Positions 11,728-21,131 of a stretch of 42,223 nucleotides of DNA are shown one piece after another; position 1 is the first letter of the stretch, and every line of letters starts with the position of its first letter. The notes below the pieces were generated by a model. It saw only the letters and a list, made by a program, of their open reading frames with translations, was not told where the DNA came from and did not search any database. The position numbers were made by a program, and so were the translations under genes. Source of the DNA: Laspinema sp. D2d (lineage in GTDB: Bacteria > Cyanobacteriota > Cyanobacteriia > Cyanobacteriales > Laspinemataceae); contig NZ_JAMXFC010000004.1 in NCBI RefSeq assembly GCF_025370755.1, positions 39,282-81,504 on the forward strand, in the 5' to 3' direction.

Positions 11728-12786
11728 CTAAAACCCACAATCAGGGTTGAAAGAGAGTCGCCAATCTCGGTTAAAACCTGAGCCAAATGTTGCATAGCTG
11801 TAGCCAAGGCGATAGGGAAAATGTCCTAGAGGAATCGTTAGAGGGTCTACCCCATTGTAGTCAGTCTCCTGATGATGGATAGAAGACCACCCTACTCTTC
11901 TTTCAAACTGTGCATAATGTTCCCAGTTTAATTCTTTGGACTTATTGCCCGTTGCTTTTAATAGGGGGGTCTGAATACTGAAACCAAAGCGATTATTAGA
12001 ATATTTGCGCCATAGTCGATCAATTTCTTGGAGTTCAGAACAGGGAATTTCTGAGATTAATAAAGAAGCTGTAGCGCTTCTTGTATCTTCTCGATAGGGT
12101 TCTAGGACCTCTAAGGTTTTCCAGTCGGCTTCAACCCATTGCTTCAGGCGCAAGGCATCAATGATTGGGCAGTATTTCAAGCGATGGGTAATCGATGCCA
12201 CACCGTTCCAAACCCCACCACTTACCCCATTTCCAGTAGTCGCAGGTAAGTGACCCTCGGGGGCAGATTTAGAGAACTTAAGTTTCTGGTAAGTCCGCCA
12301 CTGACCCTGCCTCCGCCAACCCACGCGATCGCCAAATTTCTCGGCAATTTCTGGGGTATAATTTCCGACAACGCCACCGACTGATTCCCAAATCTGTTGT
12401 TGCCGGATAAAGCCAAAGCGATTATCACTGTAGTAATTCCAGAGGTTTGCTAAACTGTGCAAATCCTCACAATCTAGTTGTTCTACATCAGCTTGACTTA
12501 ACCACCCTTCCTGTTCTCGTTGGCTAATTTTTAATAAAATCTGAAACGTTTCGCGATCGGCGGCTTTCCATTCCTGATTCTTCAGCAAAGCTTGCAAGGG
12601 TTTATAGTTAATATTGGCAGTGGAGGTGAGCGGAAATCCCGGATCTGCTTTAGGACTCGGTTCCCACCAACAGGATTGTAAACTCAAACCCAAAATTAGG
12701 GCGACTGCCTTAATTTTTTTTCCGGCACCAGGAGAGATTAATCGACTGATTGTAAAAGCCACTATCAAAAATATTTTCAATCCCAT
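11728..12786 (-). CDS. GUN4 domain-containing protein (two tandem GUN4-like domains) with N-terminal signal/lipobox
   Basis: Two copies of the GUN4 signature, ...LWNYYSDNRFGFIRQQQIW... and ...LWRKYSNNRFGFSIQTPL.... The N-terminus has a hydrophobic helix followed by LSLQSC. Confidence 0.7.
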   Translation of the reverse strand: MGLKIFLIVAFTISRLISPGAGKKIKAVALILGLSLQSCWWEPSPKADPGFPLTSTANINYKPLQALLKNQEWKAADRETFQILLKISQREQEGWLSQADVEQLDCEDLHSLANLWNYYSDNRFGFIRQQQIWESVGGVVGNYTPEIAEKFGDRVGWRRQGQWRTYQKLKFSKSAPEGHLPATTGNGVSGGVWNGVASITHRLKYCPIIDALRLKQWVEADWKTLEVLEPYREDTRSATASLLISEIPCSELQEIDRLWRKYSNNRFGFSIQTPLLKATGNKSKELNWEHYAQFERRVGWSSIHHQETDYNGVDPLTIPLGHFPYRLGYSYATFGSGFNRDWRLSFNPDCGF

Positions 12787-13139: not shown

Positions 13140-14078
13140 ATGGAAAATTTAGCATATTTACAGGCGGTTTTGGCCCTCGAATCAGTCCTGGAAGGATTAG
13201 AGCTTCACGAACCGGGACTCTTGAACTCAGGGGAAAGGGTTAAAGGACAACGTTTATCGGGTCCAGGATACCGTTATCAGTTAACGATCGCCCTGAGTCT
13301 CTCTCTCTTCAGTCTCATACAAGGGCCAGTCGCCTCCTATGTGATTCCCCCACAAGGACTGGGACGGGGAGATAGTGGGCCCCTCGTCACTTGTGTTCAG
13401 CAGATGCTGAAGGCAACGGGTTATTTTCACGGACCCGTTTCCGGTTTTTATGGACCGATGACGGAACAAGCGGTCTTAAAATGGGAACTAGAAAGTGCTG
13501 GGGTGGGCGATGGTGCGATCAATGCCTCAACAATTGCTCAAATGGGTTGTTATCAAGGGCAAAGGCCTCAGACTCCTCGTCCTGCTTCACCGAATACTAA
13601 TGCTAATCCGATGACGGGCGATCGCACCCTCTATGATTATGGCAGGGGTGCGCTGCAACCAGGCGATCGCGGGGGACAGGTGGCGCAATTACAGCAAGAA
13701 TTAATCGCTGCCGGTTACTTCACAGGTCCCGTTACCGGCTACTATGGCACATTGACGGAAGATGCGGTAATGCACGTCCAGCAGGATTACCATATCCCCA
13801 TCAATGGCGTTGCCGGGCCCAAAACCCGGTTAAAACTTGCAAAAACACCAGATCCGGTAACTCTCACTACAGAGACGCTGCGTCGGGGTTCTCAGGGTTC
13901 TGGGGTAGCTTCTCTTCAAGAAAATTTACGGAACTTAGGATACTATACAGGACCAATCAGCGGCTATTATGGACAACTCACCGAGGCAGCAGTGATGGAA
14001 TTACAACGCGATCGCCGCCTCCATGCCGATGGCATTGCCGGTCCTGAAACCCAAAGTATCTTGGTTGCTTTGTATTAA
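13140..14078 (+). CDS. peptidoglycan-binding protein with three PG_binding_1 repeats
   Basis: Three repeats of the G(D/S)xGxxVxxLQxxLxxxGYYxGPxxGYYGxxTExAV motif. Confidence 0.8.
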   Translation: MENLAYLQAVLALESVLEGLELHEPGLLNSGERVKGQRLSGPGYRYQLTIALSLSLFSLIQGPVASYVIPPQGLGRGDSGPLVTCVQQMLKATGYFHGPVSGFYGPMTEQAVLKWELESAGVGDGAINASTIAQMGCYQGQRPQTPRPASPNTNANPMTGDRTLYDYGRGALQPGDRGGQVAQLQQELIAAGYFTGPVTGYYGTLTEDAVMHVQQDYHIPINGVAGPKTRLKLAKTPDPVTLTTETLRRGSQGSGVASLQENLRNLGYYTGPISGYYGQLTEAAVMELQRDRRLHADGIAGPETQSILVALY

Positions 14079-14152: not shown

Positions 14153-14833
14153 TTAAGAAACCAGTGCCTTTCCGGGATAGATTTCCCGCTTGCGAGTTTT
14201 TTTATCCAAGTAAATCCACTCTAAATCTTGAAGGCGGTTCACCAAATTAGAGATACTCACCCCCAATTCCTCTCGCATTTCGTATAAGTGAGACCAATAG
14301 GTTAAATCCCGTCCTTGGCGTTTCTCTTCTAAAATCCGTTTCGGCATCAGTAGGCAACCCGCAAAATACTGTGCTTGCCACTCCATAGACTCTAACACCG
14401 AGGCATGATTCAGGGGACTGTTCCCTTCCCGACTCCCGCGACAGACAAAGGGTTCATCGGTTGCTGGGGTGAGGTCTGTGATCAGGCGATCGCCCGTTTC
14501 CGTCGTCGCCTCATGATTAATATGAAGCACCCAATGGCCGATTTCATGCGCTAGGGTGGATTCCTGGAATCCCTGGGGTTTATCGAGAATCTCTTCATTG
14601 ATCTCGATACAGCGTTGCAGGGGGAGAATCCTCGCTGCGATCGCCCCTTGTTCATCCGGTGGAATCCGTTCCCATATCACCCCGAGGTCAAAAAAATCCG
14701 CAACCAAAGTCACGTCAAACGGCCAGGAAGGAGCAAATTGCTCCCCGCGCTGTGCCATTCGCCTGAGTACATTATTCGCCTGATACTCAATCGCTTCTTT
14801 GCGATAATAGCGATACGGCTTAAAAATACTCAA
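14153..14833 (-). CDS. ImmA/IrrE-family zinc metallopeptidase (DUF955)
   Basis: HEXXH zincin motif LAHEIGHWVLH. 226 aa. Begins 3 nt after the stop of the upstream XRE gene. Confidence 0.85.
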   Translation of the reverse strand: MSIFKPYRYYRKEAIEYQANNVLRRMAQRGEQFAPSWPFDVTLVADFFDLGVIWERIPPDEQGAIAARILPLQRCIEINEEILDKPQGFQESTLAHEIGHWVLHINHEATTETGDRLITDLTPATDEPFVCRGSREGNSPLNHASVLESMEWQAQYFAGCLLMPKRILEEKRQGRDLTYWSHLYEMREELGVSISNLVNRLQDLEWIYLDKKTRKREIYPGKALVS

Positions 14834-14835
14834 GA

Positions 14836-15177
14836 TTATTCCCCCTCGCTTGCCACCTGCTGAAACACCTTCTCTGCAAAATCAGGATTTTCTCGCATCC
14901 GCCGCAGCAATGCAGGCATCGCTTTATAGTTTTGCTTGAGAAAATCCTCGTACCGTTGCGGAAGACGACCGGCGAGGACGATAGACTCCTCCTCATCCAA
15001 ATCCAGATTCCGCGCCAAAGACCGAATCACTTCCTCTTTAGGTGCATAGTCTGCGCGATCGTTTTCCAGCTTGGACAAGTATGTGAAATCGACATCCAGA
15101 AGCTTGGCAAGCTCCCGTTGGCTATATCCCTTGTCCTTGCGCGCTTGACGAATTAGTTTACCAAAACTCTGTTCCAC
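14836..15177 (-). CDS. XRE-family helix-turn-helix transcriptional regulator (ImmR-like)
   Basis: HTH_XRE signature IRQARKDKGYSQRELAKLLDVDFTYLSKLEN. 113 aa. Co-operonic with the ImmA-like protease. Confidence 0.85.
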   Translation of the reverse strand: MEQSFGKLIRQARKDKGYSQRELAKLLDVDFTYLSKLENDRADYAPKEEVIRSLARNLDLDEEESIVLAGRLPQRYEDFLKQNYKAMPALLRRMRENPDFAEKVFQQVASEGE

Positions 15178-15227
15178 GTCTTTAAATACCCACTACATCT
15201 GCATTGTAGGTGACTTTGAAAAAAAAA

Positions 15228-15293
15228 TCAACTTTTAGGTTGACGAAAAAATCAAACCACGTTAAACTAGGTTTAGTTGAACAATGATTCAAC
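15228..15293. promoter_or_regulatory. divergent promoter region with two inverted repeats sharing the half-site GTTGA/TCAAC; candidate operators for the XRE regulator
   Basis: TCAAC-ttttag-GTTGA at 15228-15243 and GTTGAA-caatga-TTCAAC at 15276-15293. Both lie in the 208-nt spacer between the XRE gene (minus) and the 15446 gene (plus). Confidence 0.45.
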
Positions 15294-15445
15294 AAGACAG
15301 GCGCTAGGGGTGGAGTAGCAGCTCCCAGCTTCTTCCGACTGACACGCTAGACCTAGTAAAAGCCAGGGTCGGGTAACAGACGGGTTTGGGCCAATCCACA
15401 GCGCCATACGGGAGGGTGCCACACAAACAAGACAGGAGAGGAACG

Positions 15446-15805
15446 ATGCTCAAAACCTGGACTGATACTCACTATAAGCTTGAAGACGGGGACTGGCTCT
15501 ATATTGCCAAACATGATGACCAAGGTGCCGCTTCCCTCATCTGTCCGGGTTATGCCCGCGATGGTTCGGGGTTCACGATCCATTTTACCCCAGCCCATAT
15601 CGAACTGTTACAAAATCTGCTGGCAGTTTTACAAAGTACCCAAAGCATCTCCGCCTCGGAGTCGGTTCGGGGGACCAACGGCAACCCTTGGGTAGAACAA
15701 TATCCCAACCCGGAGGCGGCTAAAATTGAGTCTCATTCCGGAGAAGAAGTGGGTTACAAATATCCCAATTCCGCCCCCGTTACCCCTCGTCCAGTGATTC
15801 GGTAA
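15446..15805 (+). CDS. hypothetical protein (about 120 aa)
   Basis: ORF with a GGAGAGG Shine-Dalgarno 8 nt upstream of the Met at 15446. No recognisable domain. Confidence 0.5.
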   Translation: MLKTWTDTHYKLEDGDWLYIAKHDDQGAASLICPGYARDGSGFTIHFTPAHIELLQNLLAVLQSTQSISASESVRGTNGNPWVEQYPNPEAAKIESHSGEEVGYKYPNSAPVTPRPVIR

Positions 15806-15809
15806 TTCC

Positions 15810-16586
15810 GTGCAATTCATGGGGGATAGGTTACTCAAAATGGCTAAAGATAAACCAGAGAATTCAGCAGCTTTACACAACACTACAGGAGTAGAAACCA
15901 TGTCTAAGAAAGCGACAATTTCCGTATTTGGAACCAAGCCCGAAAATGCCATTGTTGTTCCTGAGTTACCGATTTCTGCCAAAAACAATTGTCAGGCGGG
16001 GAAATGGACGATTGGAGATGAAGAATATGGATCTAAGTTAGCTATGACTATCCTCAAATTCAGTAAGTTTTATGGGAGTTTGGGGCAGACTAAAAATACT
16101 TTGTGGGGACAAATTTGGTTTGTGGCCGAAGGGGGAGAACTGCCCCATGATGTGGTGATGGTTACCTATGTTAAAGGCCGCAGTCTCAGTGATTTTAATC
16201 GGCTAGTTGCTTCGGTGCAGGCGCGAGGAGTTGAACCGGCAGAAGGAGTATTTGTTCCTGATTTCATCAAGCATTCAGGACAAAAGCCCGATGAGAATGG
16301 GGTGATTAAACCGATTAATTATTATAGCCTGAAATGGGACTGGATTGAACGGTCAAATTGGGAGATGGTGGAACAAGCGGCGATCGTCTTGTCTGATCCC
16401 CAAAATCTGAGTCGGATGATTGACTTGGAAGGAACTCGGGAAATGATTTGTTTGGATAATCTACCTCCGGCTGAAATTGCTTGTTTGATGGCAGCGCATT
16501 TGGAGGGTCCAACTTCGGGAGATATGGCATTGCCTGCGGCAGTTTCTCATGATTTGATGCGGGAACCTGCGCTTGCTAATGGTTAA
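15810..16586 (+). CDS. hypothetical protein (258 aa; start may be the Met at 15900)
   Basis: Compact ORF 5 nt after the previous stop. No recognisable domain. Confidence 0.55.
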   Translation: MQFMGDRLLKMAKDKPENSAALHNTTGVETMSKKATISVFGTKPENAIVVPELPISAKNNCQAGKWTIGDEEYGSKLAMTILKFSKFYGSLGQTKNTLWGQIWFVAEGGELPHDVVMVTYVKGRSLSDFNRLVASVQARGVEPAEGVFVPDFIKHSGQKPDENGVIKPINYYSLKWDWIERSNWEMVEQAAIVLSDPQNLSRMIDLEGTREMICLDNLPPAEIACLMAAHLEGPTSGDMALPAAVSHDLMREPALANG

Positions 16587-16692
16587 TTAGACTGTTGCAA
16601 AATATGGGAGAGATCCCCCCAACCCCCCTTAAGAAGGGGGGCTTTTTAGAAATTTGCAAGGAGTCTATTGAGTCGGATAAAACAACGGGGAG

Positions 16693-17040
16693 ATGCATGA
16701 AGCATCTCTCCTTTCACCGGGTTTAGATAAATTCATGAAAAAAATTGCCAAACTCACCCGCCAGTCAGTCTGGGAAAATCAGTTGAAGGGAAATCTGACT
16801 ACGATTGAGGAGATTCGTACTGATACGTTAAATGATTTACAACTCCTCAGCGAAGATTTTCAACATTTGCATCTAGTAGTTACTTCGGTTCAGCAGAATT
16901 ATGCTGCATTATTAAAGCAAAATCGCCAAATGAGAGCGATGCTTTTACAGGTGGTAGACGAGTGTTTTTGTTGGCAAGGCAATCGTTGCGATCGCTGTAA
17001 TGCCATTCTCCAGCTTCTCTCCAACCGTCAGCTAGAGTAA
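16693..17040 (+). CDS. hypothetical small protein with C-terminal Cys cluster (CFCWQGNRCDRC)
   Basis: 115-aa ORF with a predicted coiled coil and a Cys-x-Cys...Cys-xx-Cys tail. Followed by a hairpin at about 17058-17085. Confidence 0.45.
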   Translation: MHEASLLSPGLDKFMKKIAKLTRQSVWENQLKGNLTTIEEIRTDTLNDLQLLSEDFQHLHLVVTSVQQNYAALLKQNRQMRAMLLQVVDECFCWQGNRCDRCNAILQLLSNRQLE

Positions 17041-17351
17041 TGGGTAACTAAAAAAAAATCCGCATTTAGCCGCTGCGGGTTTTCATCCGGGAAGGTTGAG
17101 AAATTTAATCTTTTTTTAAAGGATTTATTTTTCTTGACAACGAGTAGTTTTCGGTTAAAATCTGGACAAGGTAAGTAGAAGGGGGAAAAGAGTTCTCCCG
17201 GGAAATAGTACCCTTCCAGTGATTGTTTTTGGCTACAAACTTAGGTTTAACCCATCCGTGAATCCCGGGATGAGTTAATCACCCCCTATTCTAAATTACC
17301 CATTTGATTAAGCTTTTCCCATCTAAACTATTGGAAATAGGAGGAAAATTC

Positions 17352-18350
17352 ATGTCCCAAACCCCGGTTAAAGACAGTAAAGCTCAAATTTTAGCCCAAT
17401 TTCAACAACTCCTTGCCAGTCGCCAAGGGACTGCCTCTAAAGTCGCCACGAAAGAGGAGGAAGCAGAAAAGGAGAAAAATAAAGAACTCCTCGCCGTTGC
17501 CTCGACTTACACCATTGATACCATTGTCAAAGGATTAGCAGATCTGCAACTGGATTTTGGGAGTATTGTCACCCAACTAGGGGAGAAACTGAACACAGAA
17601 ACTGCTAAACTGGACGAACTTAAACGGGCGATCGCCATTGAAACCGATCGCCTAGAAGAATTACGCCAAATTCGAGTTGTTGCCGATGCGCTGCATATTC
17701 TCACCCAAGAACATCAAGAAAAGTTAGCACTGCTGGATCATCAGGCGGCTTTACAACAAGAAGCCATTGAAATGGACCAAGCACAAAAGCGCAAAGCATG
17801 GCAAAAAGAACAAGAAGAATTTGACAGCTTGGTGCAAGAACAAGATGAAGCTATCACCAAAGAACGGAAACAGGAAGCCGCCGATTATGATTATGAACGG
17901 CTGCGAATTCAAGAATTAGAAACTGATGAATATGAAGAACGGAAGCGGCAACAAGAGCGTGAGTTAAAAGAGATTGCCCGCGAGAAACAAAAGAACTGGA
18001 CGGAACGCGAGAAATATTTAACTGAAAATCAAGCCGAATTTACAGCCAATCAGCAGAAGATTGCTGGATTCGAGGAAGAATTGAAACAAGCTTATATTAA
18101 AGCCAAAGAAGAGGCGATCGCGGAAGTGAAACGGGAAGCCAAAGTTAAATCTGACCTGTATGAGAAAGAGTGGGAAGGTACGAAGCAAGGGTATGATTTA
18201 ACCCTGCAATCCCTCAATAGCAATCTTGAGCGCCAAACTCAACAAATTGCGGATATTAACGCCCAGCTACAAGCGGCGACGCGACAAGCTCAAGATTTAG
18301 CAATGCGAGCGTTTCAAACCTCATCCAATGTGAGTTCTGGCTCGAAATAA
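17352..18350 (+). CDS. coiled-coil-rich protein (paralog A)
   Basis: AGGAGG Shine-Dalgarno precedes the Met at 17352. Extremely E/K/Q-rich heptad-type sequence. Shares N- and C-terminal blocks with the next gene. Confidence 0.7.
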   Translation: MSQTPVKDSKAQILAQFQQLLASRQGTASKVATKEEEAEKEKNKELLAVASTYTIDTIVKGLADLQLDFGSIVTQLGEKLNTETAKLDELKRAIAIETDRLEELRQIRVVADALHILTQEHQEKLALLDHQAALQQEAIEMDQAQKRKAWQKEQEEFDSLVQEQDEAITKERKQEAADYDYERLRIQELETDEYEERKRQQERELKEIAREKQKNWTEREKYLTENQAEFTANQQKIAGFEEELKQAYIKAKEEAIAEVKREAKVKSDLYEKEWEGTKQGYDLTLQSLNSNLERQTQQIADINAQLQAATRQAQDLAMRAFQTSSNVSSGSK

Positions 18351-18501: not shown

Positions 18502-19599
18502 ATGGCGAAAAAAATTACCGCTAAAAGTACCAAAGCGGAAATCATGGAAGTTTTAGAGGAATTAGAAAAGGAAAACTCAGGACTAGAGGCGCAAGTCAAG
18601 CAACTCGCTAAAGAAAAACAAGCAGCAGCAAAAAACATCATTTCAGCGGTTAAAGAAGTTAATTCATCTGAATCAAAAATCCCTATGAATCCCACCCCAA
18701 CTGCGCAGCAGAAAATCAATCAAACCATTGAAAGTTTGCAACTGTTACAATTAGGGTTTGGCGGTGCCGTGAGTGATTTGTCGGAGCGGCTGACTTCGGA
18801 AGCGGCTAAACTGCATGAATTGGAAGAATCGGTCAATCAGGAGGTAGAAAACCTTCAAACTTTACATAATTTGGAAGTCTCGGAGGAGACGTTAGACGGG
18901 TTAATCCAAACCTATCAAGAACGAGCGAAAACCTTTCAAATCGAAATCACCGATCGCCAGGATACCTTAGAGCAGCAAATCCAAACCCTGAAGAAAACCT
19001 GGGAAAAAGAACAAGAAACCCATCAACGTGAGAGTAAAGAACGCAATACCACCAGGCAGAAACAGCAACAGCGGGATGCTGAAGAATACCGCTATAGCTT
19101 AGAACGCGATCGCCACCTGGCGCAGGAAGAATATGAGCAAACCCAAAAAAGCTTGTATCAAGAACTAGCAGAAATCCGCCAAACCCAGGAACAAGAATGG
19201 ACTGAACGGGAAAACGCGATCGCAGAACGAGAGAAACAGTATGCCGAAGCTAAAGCCAAAGTCGAGGCACATCCCAAAGAATTGGAAACCAACATCAAAA
19301 ATGGCAAAGACAGTGGACGGAATATTGGCAACTATCAAGCCAAAATCGCCTCAGATTTACGAAGCAAAGAAGTAGAAGGACTGCAACGCTCTTATCAACT
19401 GCAAATTAGCGCATTAGAAGTGAGCATTAACAACCAAGAAGAACGCATCAAGACCCTGACTAAACAATTGGAATCGGCACTCAAACAGGTGCAAGATTTG
19501 GCAGTCAAGGCGATCGAAGGGACATCCAATGCCAACTCCTTCCAAGCCTTACGGGAAATTGCCGTGGAACAAGCCAAAAATCTGCCAAAAAGCAAATAA
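18502..19599 (+). CDS. coiled-coil-rich protein (paralog B)
   Basis: Shared blocks with paralog A: LQLGFGGAVSDLSERLTSEAAKLHEL versus LQLDFGSIVTQLGEKLNTETAKLDEL. The C-terminal QDLA(V/M)(K/R)A block is also shared. Confidence 0.7.
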   Translation: MAKKITAKSTKAEIMEVLEELEKENSGLEAQVKQLAKEKQAAAKNIISAVKEVNSSESKIPMNPTPTAQQKINQTIESLQLLQLGFGGAVSDLSERLTSEAAKLHELEESVNQEVENLQTLHNLEVSEETLDGLIQTYQERAKTFQIEITDRQDTLEQQIQTLKKTWEKEQETHQRESKERNTTRQKQQQRDAEEYRYSLERDRHLAQEEYEQTQKSLYQELAEIRQTQEQEWTERENAIAEREKQYAEAKAKVEAHPKELETNIKNGKDSGRNIGNYQAKIASDLRSKEVEGLQRSYQLQISALEVSINNQEERIKTLTKQLESALKQVQDLAVKAIEGTSNANSFQALREIAVEQAKNLPKSK

Positions 19600-19703
19600 T
19601 CGAATTTTAGTGTTATTTTAACTAGGGGCAATTGATTAATTGTCCCTAGTTTTCTGTATTTAAGACGGGTAAATCCTCATCAAACGTTGAGAACCGAGGC
19701 TCC

Positions 19704-21131
19704 ATGCAACCAAACTCCATGCAACCAAACAACGAGGGTTGGATTAAAATTGCTGAATATATTTCCCTAGCTGGATCAGTTGCTGGTTTGGTTGCTGCAT
19801 TGGTTCTGGGAAGACTCAGTTATGCAGCCGTTGTTTTATTTCTCTCAGCCTGGTTAAATTTGGTCTATCGCCACCGATTGCACTTGATCACGCAGCAACG
19901 ACTCAGCAATGCCATTACGGAAGTGGATCAGAGTATAGATGAGTTTCAGGTGGCGATCGCCAATCGAGTTGGGGAACTCAGCGAAGAAATCTCCCACCTC
20001 AATGAAAACCTCCTCGACAAACCCGAGAAGGAGCAAATAGAGCGATTACTTTCCCCCATCCTCAACCTAGAACAACAGTTAATGGTGTTGGATGCAGCGT
20101 TAGCGCAGATTAGCAAGCATCTGGAACCTCCCATCGAGGAATTGCGCGATACCCTCACCGCCACCGAAGCAGACTCGCCAGAAAAAGCCACAACCGTAGG
20201 TAGCAGTCGTCTTCCCGAGGAGATTGCTCAACTCTCGGAACAAATTTCCCATCTCGGCGAGGCGATCGAGAAACTCGAACCCCGACGAGAAGGCAGCGAA
20301 ATCGTCCCCGTCCCTCCCCAAATGCCGATCGTGCCGAATGTCTGGGGTGTACCCGCCGTCAGCGAAGCGAACCCTAATCTACCCATGATCGATGCCTCGC
20401 CGGTTTCCTATGCCAGCGCCACCTCCCCCACCCCATTACCGACCTGGGGAAATCCCTATGATAAACTAAACCCTGAGACTGGCTCACCCCAAGCATTTCC
20501 AGCGAATCAAGCGCTGACTGTATCATCCCAGCCAGCGATCGCCTATTCCGGCTATCCCAACCCGGCGATCGGCGGCGAACCCGCCTCCAACATTGACTTA
20601 CGAGGAGCCATTCTCATTGGCTGTAGCCTCACCCAAGCCAATTTTGCGGGAGGGGATCTCCAAGAAGCCAACCTCAGTCAAGCCGACTTACGCGGTGCCG
20701 ACTTACGGGAAGCCAACCTTGCCGGTGCGAACCTCAGCGGTGCCAACCTGAATGAAGCCGACTTAGACGGTGCCAATCTTGCCGGTGCCGACTTGCGCGG
20801 CGTCAACCTCAGAAATACCCTGTTCAGAAATGTTTATCTCAGTGGCGCAAACCTCAGCGGATCCGACTTAAGCGGATTGGATTTAAGTGCGCTCAATCTC
20901 AACAGCGCCACCCTGATGGAAACCAATCTATCCAGTGCCAATTTACAGCAAACCCAATTAATCGGTGCGAATCTTGCCGGTGCGAATCTTGCCGGTGCTA
21001 ACCTAGAATCGGCTAACCTCACCCATGCCAACCTCACTAACGCCAACCTGATCGGCGCTAATTTTGGCGAAGGGGAAAATCAAGCTCAACTCGATGGCGC
21101 AATTCTCCCCGATGGCAGTATTTATGAGTAG
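19704..21131 (+). CDS. membrane-anchored pentapeptide-repeat protein
   Basis: Two N-terminal TM helices, a coiled-coil segment, a Pro-rich linker, then about 30 tandem A(N/D)LxG pentapeptide repeats. Confidence 0.85.
   Translation: MQPNSMQPNNEGWIKIAEYISLAGSVAGLVAALVLGRLSYAAVVLFLSAWLNLVYRHRLHLITQQRLSNAITEVDQSIDEFQVAIANRVGELSEEISHLNENLLDKPEKEQIERLLSPILNLEQQLMVLDAALAQISKHLEPPIEELRDTLTATEADSPEKATTVGSSRLPEEIAQLSEQISHLGEAIEKLEPRREGSEIVPVPPQMPIVPNVWGVPAVSEANPNLPMIDASPVSYASATSPTPLPTWGNPYDKLNPETGSPQAFPANQALTVSSQPAIAYSGYPNPAIGGEPASNIDLRGAILIGCSLTQANFAGGDLQEANLSQADLRGADLREANLAGANLSGANLNEADLDGANLAGADLRGVNLRNTLFRNVYLSGANLSGSDLSGLDLSALNLNSATLMETNLSSANLQQTQLIGANLAGANLAGANLESANLTHANLTNANLIGANFGEGENQAQLDGAILPDGSIYE

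Follow-up and report, generated by a model that had tools for sequence, protein, structure and literature searches.

In Deinococcus, the XRE helix-turn-helix (HTH) repressor DdrO is inactivated by the COG2856/M78 zinc metallopeptidase IrrE (PprI), which cuts it between L106 and R107, in a response that is induced by ionising radiation and does not depend on LexA. The Deinococcus genes induced in this way include that of the alternative single-stranded DNA (ssDNA)-binding protein DdrB; irrE and ddrO are unlinked, and the response extends to a dispersed regulon recognised through a 17-bp motif different from the one described below. The ImmR/ImmA switch of ICEBs1 and phage-like elements is built on a short M78 peptidase lacking a GAF domain, encoded downstream of its XRE substrate in a co-transcribed pair that diverges from the regulated genes. 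In a third switch of this kind, which regulates CBASS and other immune operons, CapP is activated by ssDNA and cuts CapH between F82 and R83 (Lau et al., 2022, preprint 10.1101/2022.04.27.489752; Calloji et al., 2026, preprint). CapP has domain limits at residues 1–141, 142–182 and 182–288. In the Thauera enzyme (H96/E97/H100/E129), residue C113 of an insertion caps the zinc and keeps the peptidase off until ssDNA binds; such a cysteine-switch loop is present in a third of CapP proteins. In both IrrE and CapP, ssDNA is bound in a groove between the peptidase and the GAF domain, the latter supplying half of it. Here we analyse a locus that shares with these three switches the repressor-peptidase pair, an intact HExxH motif with its Glu ligand, and palindromic predicted operators. 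It is a seven-gene cluster within a stretch of 42,223 nucleotides (nt) of Laspinema sp. D2d (assembly GCF_025370755.1, contig NZ_JAMXFC010000004.1, positions 39,282–81,504 of the forward strand), which is hereafter called the window.

A cluster of the same layout has been described in Arthrospira/Limnospira indica PCC 8005 (ARTHROv5_10466–10471), where the XRE gene arhR (10466) diverges from five genes, arhABCDE, reported to be "most likely co-transcribed", two of which are annotated as chromosome-segregation (SMC) type (Badri et al., 2015, PMC4398503, PMC4550399; Yadav et al., 2021, PMC8400943). According to the same studies, the five genes form the top gamma-radiation-induced set, with 8–30-fold increases that are still high in recovery, and three of the five proteins are also raised after gamma rays. 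The 2015 supplement further reports a gamma induction of 2.68- and 2.76-fold for gene 10465, and of 2.55- and 2.78-fold for arhR. Synteny places the peptidase on the far side of arhR and thus identifies it with 10465; the matched induction of the two genes is as expected of an autoregulated two-gene operon. The 2015 paper also states that lexA is absent from Arthrospira and that recA is not induced. The 2015 MicrobiologyOpen and 2021 arh papers mention no adjacent M78 peptidase, IrrE, ImmA, DdrO or metalloprotease, the published arh work presents neither an operator nor a fold for any Arh protein, and in our literature search no study came up that connects IrrE with these genera.

The gene order, the gene sizes and a weak SMC match of the window's cluster fit the published arh description, the window coming from another genus (Laspinema/Oscillatoria). 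As in PCC 8005, the XRE gene diverges from five genes, the last two being of the coiled-coil/SMC-like type, and about 70 other Oscillatoriales genomes share this order. The orthologous cluster of A. platensis PCC 7345 (locus L018 of the scan described below) encodes proteins with 59% (peptidase), 72% (XRE), 73% (ArhB), 54% (ArhD) and 47% (ArhE) identity to those of the window. Based on architecture and on this A. platensis cluster, the evidence that the window's cluster is the orthologue of PCC 8005 arhR-arhABCDE is strong but indirect, and the arh names are used here on this basis. In outline, the arh cluster had been described before; what is new is its protease partner, the layout of its operators, its conservation across Oscillatoriales and the fold of ArhB. 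We consider it probable (at about 0.68) that the seven genes of the locus form a DNA-damage response module similar to DdrO/IrrE, whose cargo serves DNA protection or repair. This reading builds on gene content, synteny, catalytic residues, the architecture and conservation of operators and promoters, and the fold of ArhB; gamma induction is taken from the Limnospira literature, and from the whole we infer the binding of the repressor and its proteolysis, the signal that activates the switch and the biochemistry of the cargo.

The regulator pair occupies the minus strand and diverges from five genes on the plus strand. The XRE gene (14836–15177, 113 amino acids, aa; identified with Pfam HTH_3 and PADLOC capH) is followed by the gene of the M78 (ImmA/IrrE-family, COG2856) zinc metallopeptidase (14153–14833, 226 aa; identified with Pfam, PADLOC, a PDB profile and orthologues), which begins only 2 nt past the XRE stop codon. 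The first-pass annotation, made from the letters of the sequence, had proposed precisely such a two-gene operon of an XRE protein and a HEIGH-type ImmA/IrrE peptidase, and the Pfam matches and the 2-nt gap bear it out. Its view of the cargo had to be revised. It had counted three divergent genes ending at 17040, behind a spacer of 208 nt; the open reading frames (ORFs) and the CxC...CxxC tail of the third are real, yet orthologue alignments shift all three starts. They favour ATG 15446 for arhA (15446–15805, 119 aa), which gives a divergent spacer of 268 nt, position 15900 for arhB (15900–16586, 228 aa instead of 258), and position 16735 for arhC (16735–17040, 101 aa, with an alternative ATG at 16693). 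In addition, the unit continues past 17040 with two syntenic coiled-coil genes, arhD (17352–18350, 332 aa; the ORF opens at TTG 17304, and ATG 17352 was chosen together with its ribosome-binding site) and arhE (18502–19599, 365 aa), and closes with an intrinsic-terminator-like hairpin of a 14-bp stem and a T run (19620–19651, plus strand). The cargo thus comprises five genes.

The repressor matches HTH_3 in Pfam (6e-13), and its best PADLOC match is capH (1e-9); ImmR (7t8i) is among its PDB profile matches. The HTH region is invariant across orthologues. Near the C-terminus, residues 89–93 read A-L-[L/F]-R-R, with L90 invariant and followed by [L/F]91-R92-R93. Since this motif parallels F82/R83 of CapH and L106/R107 of DdrO, we regard the bond between [L/F]91 and R92 as a candidate cleavage site, by analogy with the two characterised substrates.

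The peptidase matches Peptidase_M78 (PF06114, 2.9e-11), and its best PADLOC match is capP (1.2e-15), which covers only profile positions 19–151 of 242. The HEIGH motif lies at residues 96–100, and H96, E97, H100 and the third ligand E151, the latter within ExxAxxFAxxLLMP, are invariant in 14 orthologues. The best PDB profile match is CapP (7t5t), with both motifs aligned, although it is weak (E = 0.008), and a PDB search with the single sequence returned nothing relevant. With CapH and CapP as the best PADLOC matches of the pair, the catalytic residues invariant and the palindromes behaving as phylogenetic footprints over both promoters (see below), the earlier interpretation of the two genes as a repressor/protease switch is upheld. 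Only 62 residues follow LLMP in the 226-aa protein; this, together with the partial capP match, indicates that the peptidase has no GAF domain. Between HExxH and E151, we find an acidic insertion of variable length that ends in an invariant F129-x-C131-R132. By analogy with the Thauera enzyme, the Cys131 loop would probably mask the active site at rest. Judged from its sequence, the peptidase is ImmA-like in architecture and CapP-like in its Cys loop.

Compared with DdrO/IrrE, whose cut site is a hydrophobic residue followed by Arg, a pattern also present in the invariant [L/F]-R-R of ArhR, the arh pair forms one operon, its operators are seen only in its own spacer, and its peptidase lacks the GAF domain that IrrE has. 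CapH/CapP provides the best profile matches and has in common with the arh locus a pair located beside the regulated operon, a Cys in the insertion, the H96/E97/H100 numbering of the Thauera enzyme and an F/R-type site near the C-terminus of the repressor. On the other hand, the arh peptidase has no GAF domain, so the ssDNA groove cannot exist in the same form, the cargo is no recognised immune system, and the module, instead of being patchy, is conserved vertically throughout the lineage. Finally, the arh locus resembles ImmR/ImmA in its short GAF-less peptidase, encoded downstream of the XRE protein that is its likely substrate, and in the divergence from the regulated genes, but it contains no mobile-element genes and its cargo is conserved across genera; a Cys loop is not a known feature of ImmA.

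The divergent spacer contains three copies of an 18-bp palindrome, nTTGA-N8-TCAAn, which is the conserved element of this region. The first, O0 (TTTGA-N8-TCAAC, 15215–15232), overlaps the −35 of a promoter-like site for the repressor and peptidase genes (15203–15231, minus strand; −35 TTGATT at 15231–15226, −10 TACAAT at 15208–15203). O1 (GTTGA-N8-TCAAA, 15239–15256), situated 24 nt from O0, contains the −35 of the cargo promoter-like site (15240–15268, plus strand; −35 TTGACG, a 17-nt spacer and −10 TAAACT at 15263–15268). O2 (15276–15293) is a perfect GTTGA-N8-TCAAC located 37 nt from O1, over the predicted cargo transcription start. Two inverted repeats had previously been pointed out here, and both are present; GTTGAA-N6-TTCAAC (15276–15293) coincides with O2, whereas TCAAC-N6-GTTGA (15228–15243) proves to be the junction between the right half of O0 and the left half of O1. 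Allowing one mismatch at most, the palindrome occurs only three times in the 42-kb window, always within the same 79 nt. The number alone is insignificant, as shuffled sequences contain 1.5 matches on average and 20 of 100 shuffles reach three; the significance of the operators lies instead in their conservation in the spacer. Indeed, all 72 exact occurrences of GTTGA-N8-TCAAC in 1.38 Mb of related loci fall in this spacer, against an expectation of about 1.5. The three sites recur in the examined loci of every genus, in most of them with the 24/37-nt spacing, and their half-sites are invariant while the spacers vary. In an alignment of 18 spacers, the minus-strand −10 is kept as TAnnAT, the cargo −35 TTGACG is invariant and the cargo −10 is kept as TAnnnT, all with fixed spacing; downstream of O2, only scattered columns are conserved. 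The layout of these putative operators, as predicted from sequence, is that of classical autoregulation combined with repression of the cargo.

Variations of the spacer were observed in several lineages. Planktothrix and relatives (L013, L014, L016, L017 and L025) carry an insertion of about 100–135 nt between O0 and O1, the O1–O2 distance remaining 37 nt. In A. platensis PCC 7345 (L018:8200–9500), the interval between arhR and arhA contains inserted IS605/TnpB-like ORFs together with a run of N, which extend the spacer to 1560 nt; O1 and O2 still adjoin arhA, and O0 was not found there. The cargo leader of Microcoleus, Kamptonema and others contains a second palindrome, ACGCTA-N4-TAGCGT, at a fixed distance of about 49 nt past O2. 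Both of its arms vary, reading ACTCTA..TAGAGT in L042 and CACACTATA / TATAGTGTG in L045 and L074, and in the window it is degenerate (CACGCTAGACCTAGT, 15344–15358). This element might form a hairpin in the leader RNA or serve as a further binding site for a protein.

To describe the distribution of the cluster, we used a locus scan of one genome per species, which yielded 80 related loci; all window proteins were then run against them by tblastn. Almost everywhere the gene order is the same, with peptidase and XRE genes on the minus strand and arhA, arhB, arhC, arhD and arhE on the plus strand. The seven-gene cluster is found in genera such as Laspinema, Oscillatoria, Microcoleus, Planktothrix, Arthrospira, Tychonema, Lyngbya, Kamptonema, Limnoraphis and Capilliphycus. 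The XRE gene is present in 74 of the 76 loci having more than 1.1 kb upstream of arhB, the two others (L011 and L021) being lone arhB paralogues on other contigs, and the peptidase was found in approximately 70 of the 80. The identity to the window's proteins ranges from 70 to 99% for the XRE protein, 56 to 96% for the peptidase, 67 to 98% for ArhB, 54 to 94% for ArhD and 47 to 94% for ArhE. The flanking GUN4, peptidoglycan-binding and pentapeptide-repeat genes are common only to the nearest genus and vary between genera. Such strong conservation, with seven genes kept while their flanks differ, indicates selection on a host function. A cargo occurring elsewhere without the regulators would have pointed away from a regulated module; the cargo is in fact conserved, and the XRE/M78 pair accompanies it.

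These data also bear on the idea that the XRE/COG2856 pair works alone, as a type II toxin-antitoxin-like module, and that the divergent genes are unrelated neighbours. Pairs of this kind are classed as toxin-antitoxin-like in the literature, and NCBIfam gives weak matches to antitoxin families. Nevertheless, we rejected this explanation as highly improbable, given that the same five-gene cargo accompanies the pair in nearly every locus with sufficient upstream sequence, that the operators cover the cargo promoter and that, in Limnospira, the cargo is induced together with the regulator.

Some loci depart from the common arrangement. The coiled-coil genes are absent from the lineages of L014 and L024. 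In the former (L014:4300–4900), the C-terminus of ArhE survives as a 28-aa remnant; in the latter (L024:11331–13679), the coiled-coil position is held by a 402-aa AAA_21/SMC_N ATPase, behind which comes a FitA-like/PIN toxin-antitoxin pair. Three records (L019, L028 and P0072), labelled Actinomycetota MAG69, Richelia sp. CSU_2_1 and Candidatus Gracilibacteria, carry an Oscillatoriales arh cluster or ArhB, P0072 being a single protein; their ArhB is about 67–72% identical to that of the window, and the records are probably mis-binned or mislabelled.

The database relatives of ArhB number 238 at E ≤ 0.001, and the 120 that were listed are 62–96% identical; all the named ones among those listed are "hypothetical protein", mostly from Oscillatoriales. 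When 1.84 billion representative proteins were searched with an ArhB profile, the matches formed 137 clusters at 50% identity. With 43 diverse members aligned, AlphaFold2 produced a model with a predicted local distance difference test (pLDDT) score of 91.3 and a predicted template modelling score (pTM) of 0.83, while an earlier model based on close orthologues only had reached a pLDDT of 61. The model is an oligonucleotide/oligosaccharide-binding (OB) fold whose closest structures are the phage DNA-binding proteins gp32 of T4/RB69 and gp3 of phiC31. Structure prediction had been suggested as a way to examine the cargo, which the first-pass annotation could not assign to any family, and for this second cargo protein it was productive. 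The statement that no family is recognisable stands for ArhA, ArhB and ArhC as far as library matches are concerned, but the cluster as a whole matches arh and ArhB has a confident gp32-like model. Comparing this model with viral models by Foldseek, we found 21 uncharacterised phage proteins at E ≤ 1e-3; tblastn of ArhB against 50,697 phage genomes gave no match, and a protein search with the diverse ArhB alignment recovered only the same close Oscillatoriales orthologues. gp32 carries a zinc-binding subdomain with Cys/His ligands. In the wider ArhB family C31 alone is near-invariant, and no four-ligand set is present. From the model, ArhB is probably an ssDNA-binding protein, a similarity at the level of the fold and not of membership in the gp32 family.

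The genomic contexts of the ArhB relatives agree with a role in DNA metabolism. One relative lies between a phage-type UvrD-like helicase gene (phrog_1967, 5.6e-33) and an exonuclease-like gene. In Laspinema palackyanum D2a (L011:8900–16200, NODE_45), an ArhB paralogue that is 82% identical stands alone, unaccompanied by any further arh gene, and after it come a pilin-like N-methyl protein, an ArdA antirestriction protein and an SNF2 helicase; the coverage of this contig is 147x as compared with 66x for the arh contig, and its layout is reminiscent of a conjugative element's leading region. In Phormidium sp. CCY1219 (L021:1–2568), a contig of 2.57 kb has a coverage of 2665x, about 28 times that of the chromosomal arh contig (94x). 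It encodes an ArhB homologue (1691–2362), a 391-aa protein without a Pfam match (464–1639) and a 78-aa ORF, and looks like a small high-copy plasmid with its own ArhB-type protein. The contigs of distant ArhB relatives, mostly too short for context, show arh neighbours in no case.

As for the other cargo proteins, two parts of ArhA are conserved, an N-terminal domain of about 65 aa (MLxTWTDTHY...CPGYARDGxGFSIHF) and the C-terminal tail (YxYP...h-[IV]-R). In ArhC, a helical region precedes a CxCxxGNxCxxC knuckle that is kept in all aligned orthologues but one, that of L018, where it is interrupted at the first Cys. ArhA, ArhB and ArhC have no match in Pfam, NCBIfam or PADLOC, and none better than E = 0.045 in PHROGs. 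ArhD and ArhE are paralogous (28–36% identity), and both match phrog_29668 over their full length (6.4e-11 and 1.2e-15, respectively). ArhE also gives a weak SMC-like match to TIGR02168 in NCBIfam (0.038), and it matched only gp268 of Bacillus phage G (26% identity), in an uninformative neighbourhood.

Such a cargo could also be an anti-phage defence or abortive-infection operon under control of the CapH/CapP type, in which DNA damage caused by infection would activate the peptidase, and the cargo would kill or arrest the cell or attack phage DNA; a defence or abortive-infection function had indeed been proposed for the locus. CapH and CapP are the top PADLOC matches of the regulator pair, they respond to DNA damage and govern many immune operons, phage relatives exist for ArhB and for the coiled-coil proteins, and in L024 the coiled-coil genes are replaced by an ATPase gene beside a toxin-antitoxin pair. 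However, no cargo protein matches any of the 5027 PADLOC models, the coiled-coil proteins giving only JetC/LmuB noise at E > 0.03, and Pfam and NCBIfam revealed neither a nuclease, NTPase, TIR or Sir2 domain nor a membrane effector domain in the cargo. Furthermore, the cluster is conserved (65–98% identity) and syntenic over the whole order, with native composition, whereas defence islands are patchy and turn over fast, and the Limnospira counterpart is gamma-induced, its expression being sustained during recovery from irradiation, which is difficult to reconcile with a toxic effector. We thus regard a defence role as unlikely.

As for composition, the G+C content of the cluster is 45.4% (46.2% for the window), and it contains 1.3 copies of the HIP1 octamer per kb, as compared with 1.66. 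An abundance of HIP1 is a hallmark of cyanobacterial chromosomes; the octamer (GCGATCGC) is present in 71 copies in the whole window against 0.45 expected. A recently acquired island was rejected on the basis of this host-like G+C content and HIP1 density. Neither an integrase or excisionase gene nor an att-like repeat, a tRNA or a structural gene was found near the cluster. The same data weigh on a further explanation, namely that the locus is the domesticated remnant of the immunity region of a prophage or integrative element of the ImmR/ImmA type, its cargo consisting of leftover early replication and recombination genes with no dedicated host function. The divergence of a repressor-protease pair from the cargo reproduces the immR-immA order of ICEBs1, the peptidase is short and GAF-less as is ImmA, members of the ArhB family occur in phage-like and plasmid-like contexts, and the coiled-coil proteins match a PHROG family. 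A remnant without function would hardly be expected, though, to keep seven strongly conserved genes together despite differing flanks, with a host-like composition and without any mobile-element gene nearby, and we consider this reading improbable. Considering the phage and plasmid relatives, an origin from a mobile element is possible as ancestry, but is unfit as a description of the present state.

The DNA-damage response reading can be put in the form of a mechanism. Dimers of ArhR would bind the three palindromes; O0 would block the −35 of the repressor promoter, O1 the −35 of the cargo promoter and O2 the cargo start, so that both operons would be kept low and the regulator would control its own synthesis. 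Upon DNA damage, the co-transcribed M78 peptidase would become active, the internal Cys131 loop probably being the mask that holds it at rest, and would cut the C-terminal oligomerisation region of ArhR at the candidate site. Release of ArhR from the DNA would then induce the five-gene operon strongly and the regulator operon weakly. The cargo would most likely act on damaged DNA, with ArhB as a gp32-like ssDNA binder, ArhD and ArhE as SMC-like coiled-coil paralogues, ArhC as a protein made of a helix and a Cys4 knuckle, and ArhA as a small partner protein.

Several points weigh against this interpretation. The identity with ARTHROv5_10466–10471 is deduced from architecture and from the A. platensis orthologue; for Laspinema we infer both binding and cleavage, induction being known from Limnospira only, and certain XRE/COG2856 pairs work without cleavage. 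The GAF domain missing here makes up, in IrrE and CapP, one half of the groove for ssDNA; sensing may consequently differ or need another factor, as ImmA does. ArhA, ArhC, ArhD and ArhE are without functional assignment. Finally, given the long intergenic gaps and a hairpin behind arhB, the five genes may not all belong to a single transcript. This G+C-rich hairpin, followed by a T run, is located between arhB and arhC (16623–16641, plus strand) and is possibly an internal attenuator or an RNA-stability element.

A near-consensus promoter-like sequence, TTGACA-16-TAAAAT, was also noted upstream of arhD (17134–17161). It is present in 3 of 73 loci, and none of the 73 has an operator between arhB and arhD; on these grounds, a separately regulated arhDE unit was rejected, and one regulated promoter for the cargo is the simplest reading. 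In Laspinema, the hairpin and this promoter might nevertheless allow differential expression inside the operon.

The genes flanking the cluster in the window are ordinary. Upstream lie those for a double-GUN4 protein (11728–12786) and for a protein with three PG_binding_1 repeats (13140–14078), and downstream those for a pentapeptide-repeat protein with an N-terminal coiled region (19704–21131) and a homologue of proteasome-type subunits (PF00227, 21394–22161). An Rfam search detected no RNA family in the window.

The arh genes have stood out as the top radiation-induced genes of Arthrospira/Limnospira, an organism used in space life-support research, since 2015. As regards their function and control, the present analysis offers candidates for the sensor protease and for the cleavage site, three putative operators and a probable ssDNA-binding activity for ArhB. 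If correct, it would extend the logic of DdrO/IrrE as well as CapH/CapP to a chromosomal, vertically inherited stress operon of cyanobacteria, and to a peptidase variant with a cysteine loop and no GAF sensor domain. More tentatively, the arh module may represent a lineage-wide, LexA-independent damage response in which a GAF-less, cysteine-gated peptidase senses damage in a different manner, and in which a phage-derived repair or protection machine underlies the ability of Arthrospira, Microcoleus and their relatives to tolerate radiation and desiccation. If this were true, that machine, composed of a gp32-like ssDNA binder together with a pair of SMC-like coiled-coil proteins and one Cys4 protein, would be one previously unrecognised.

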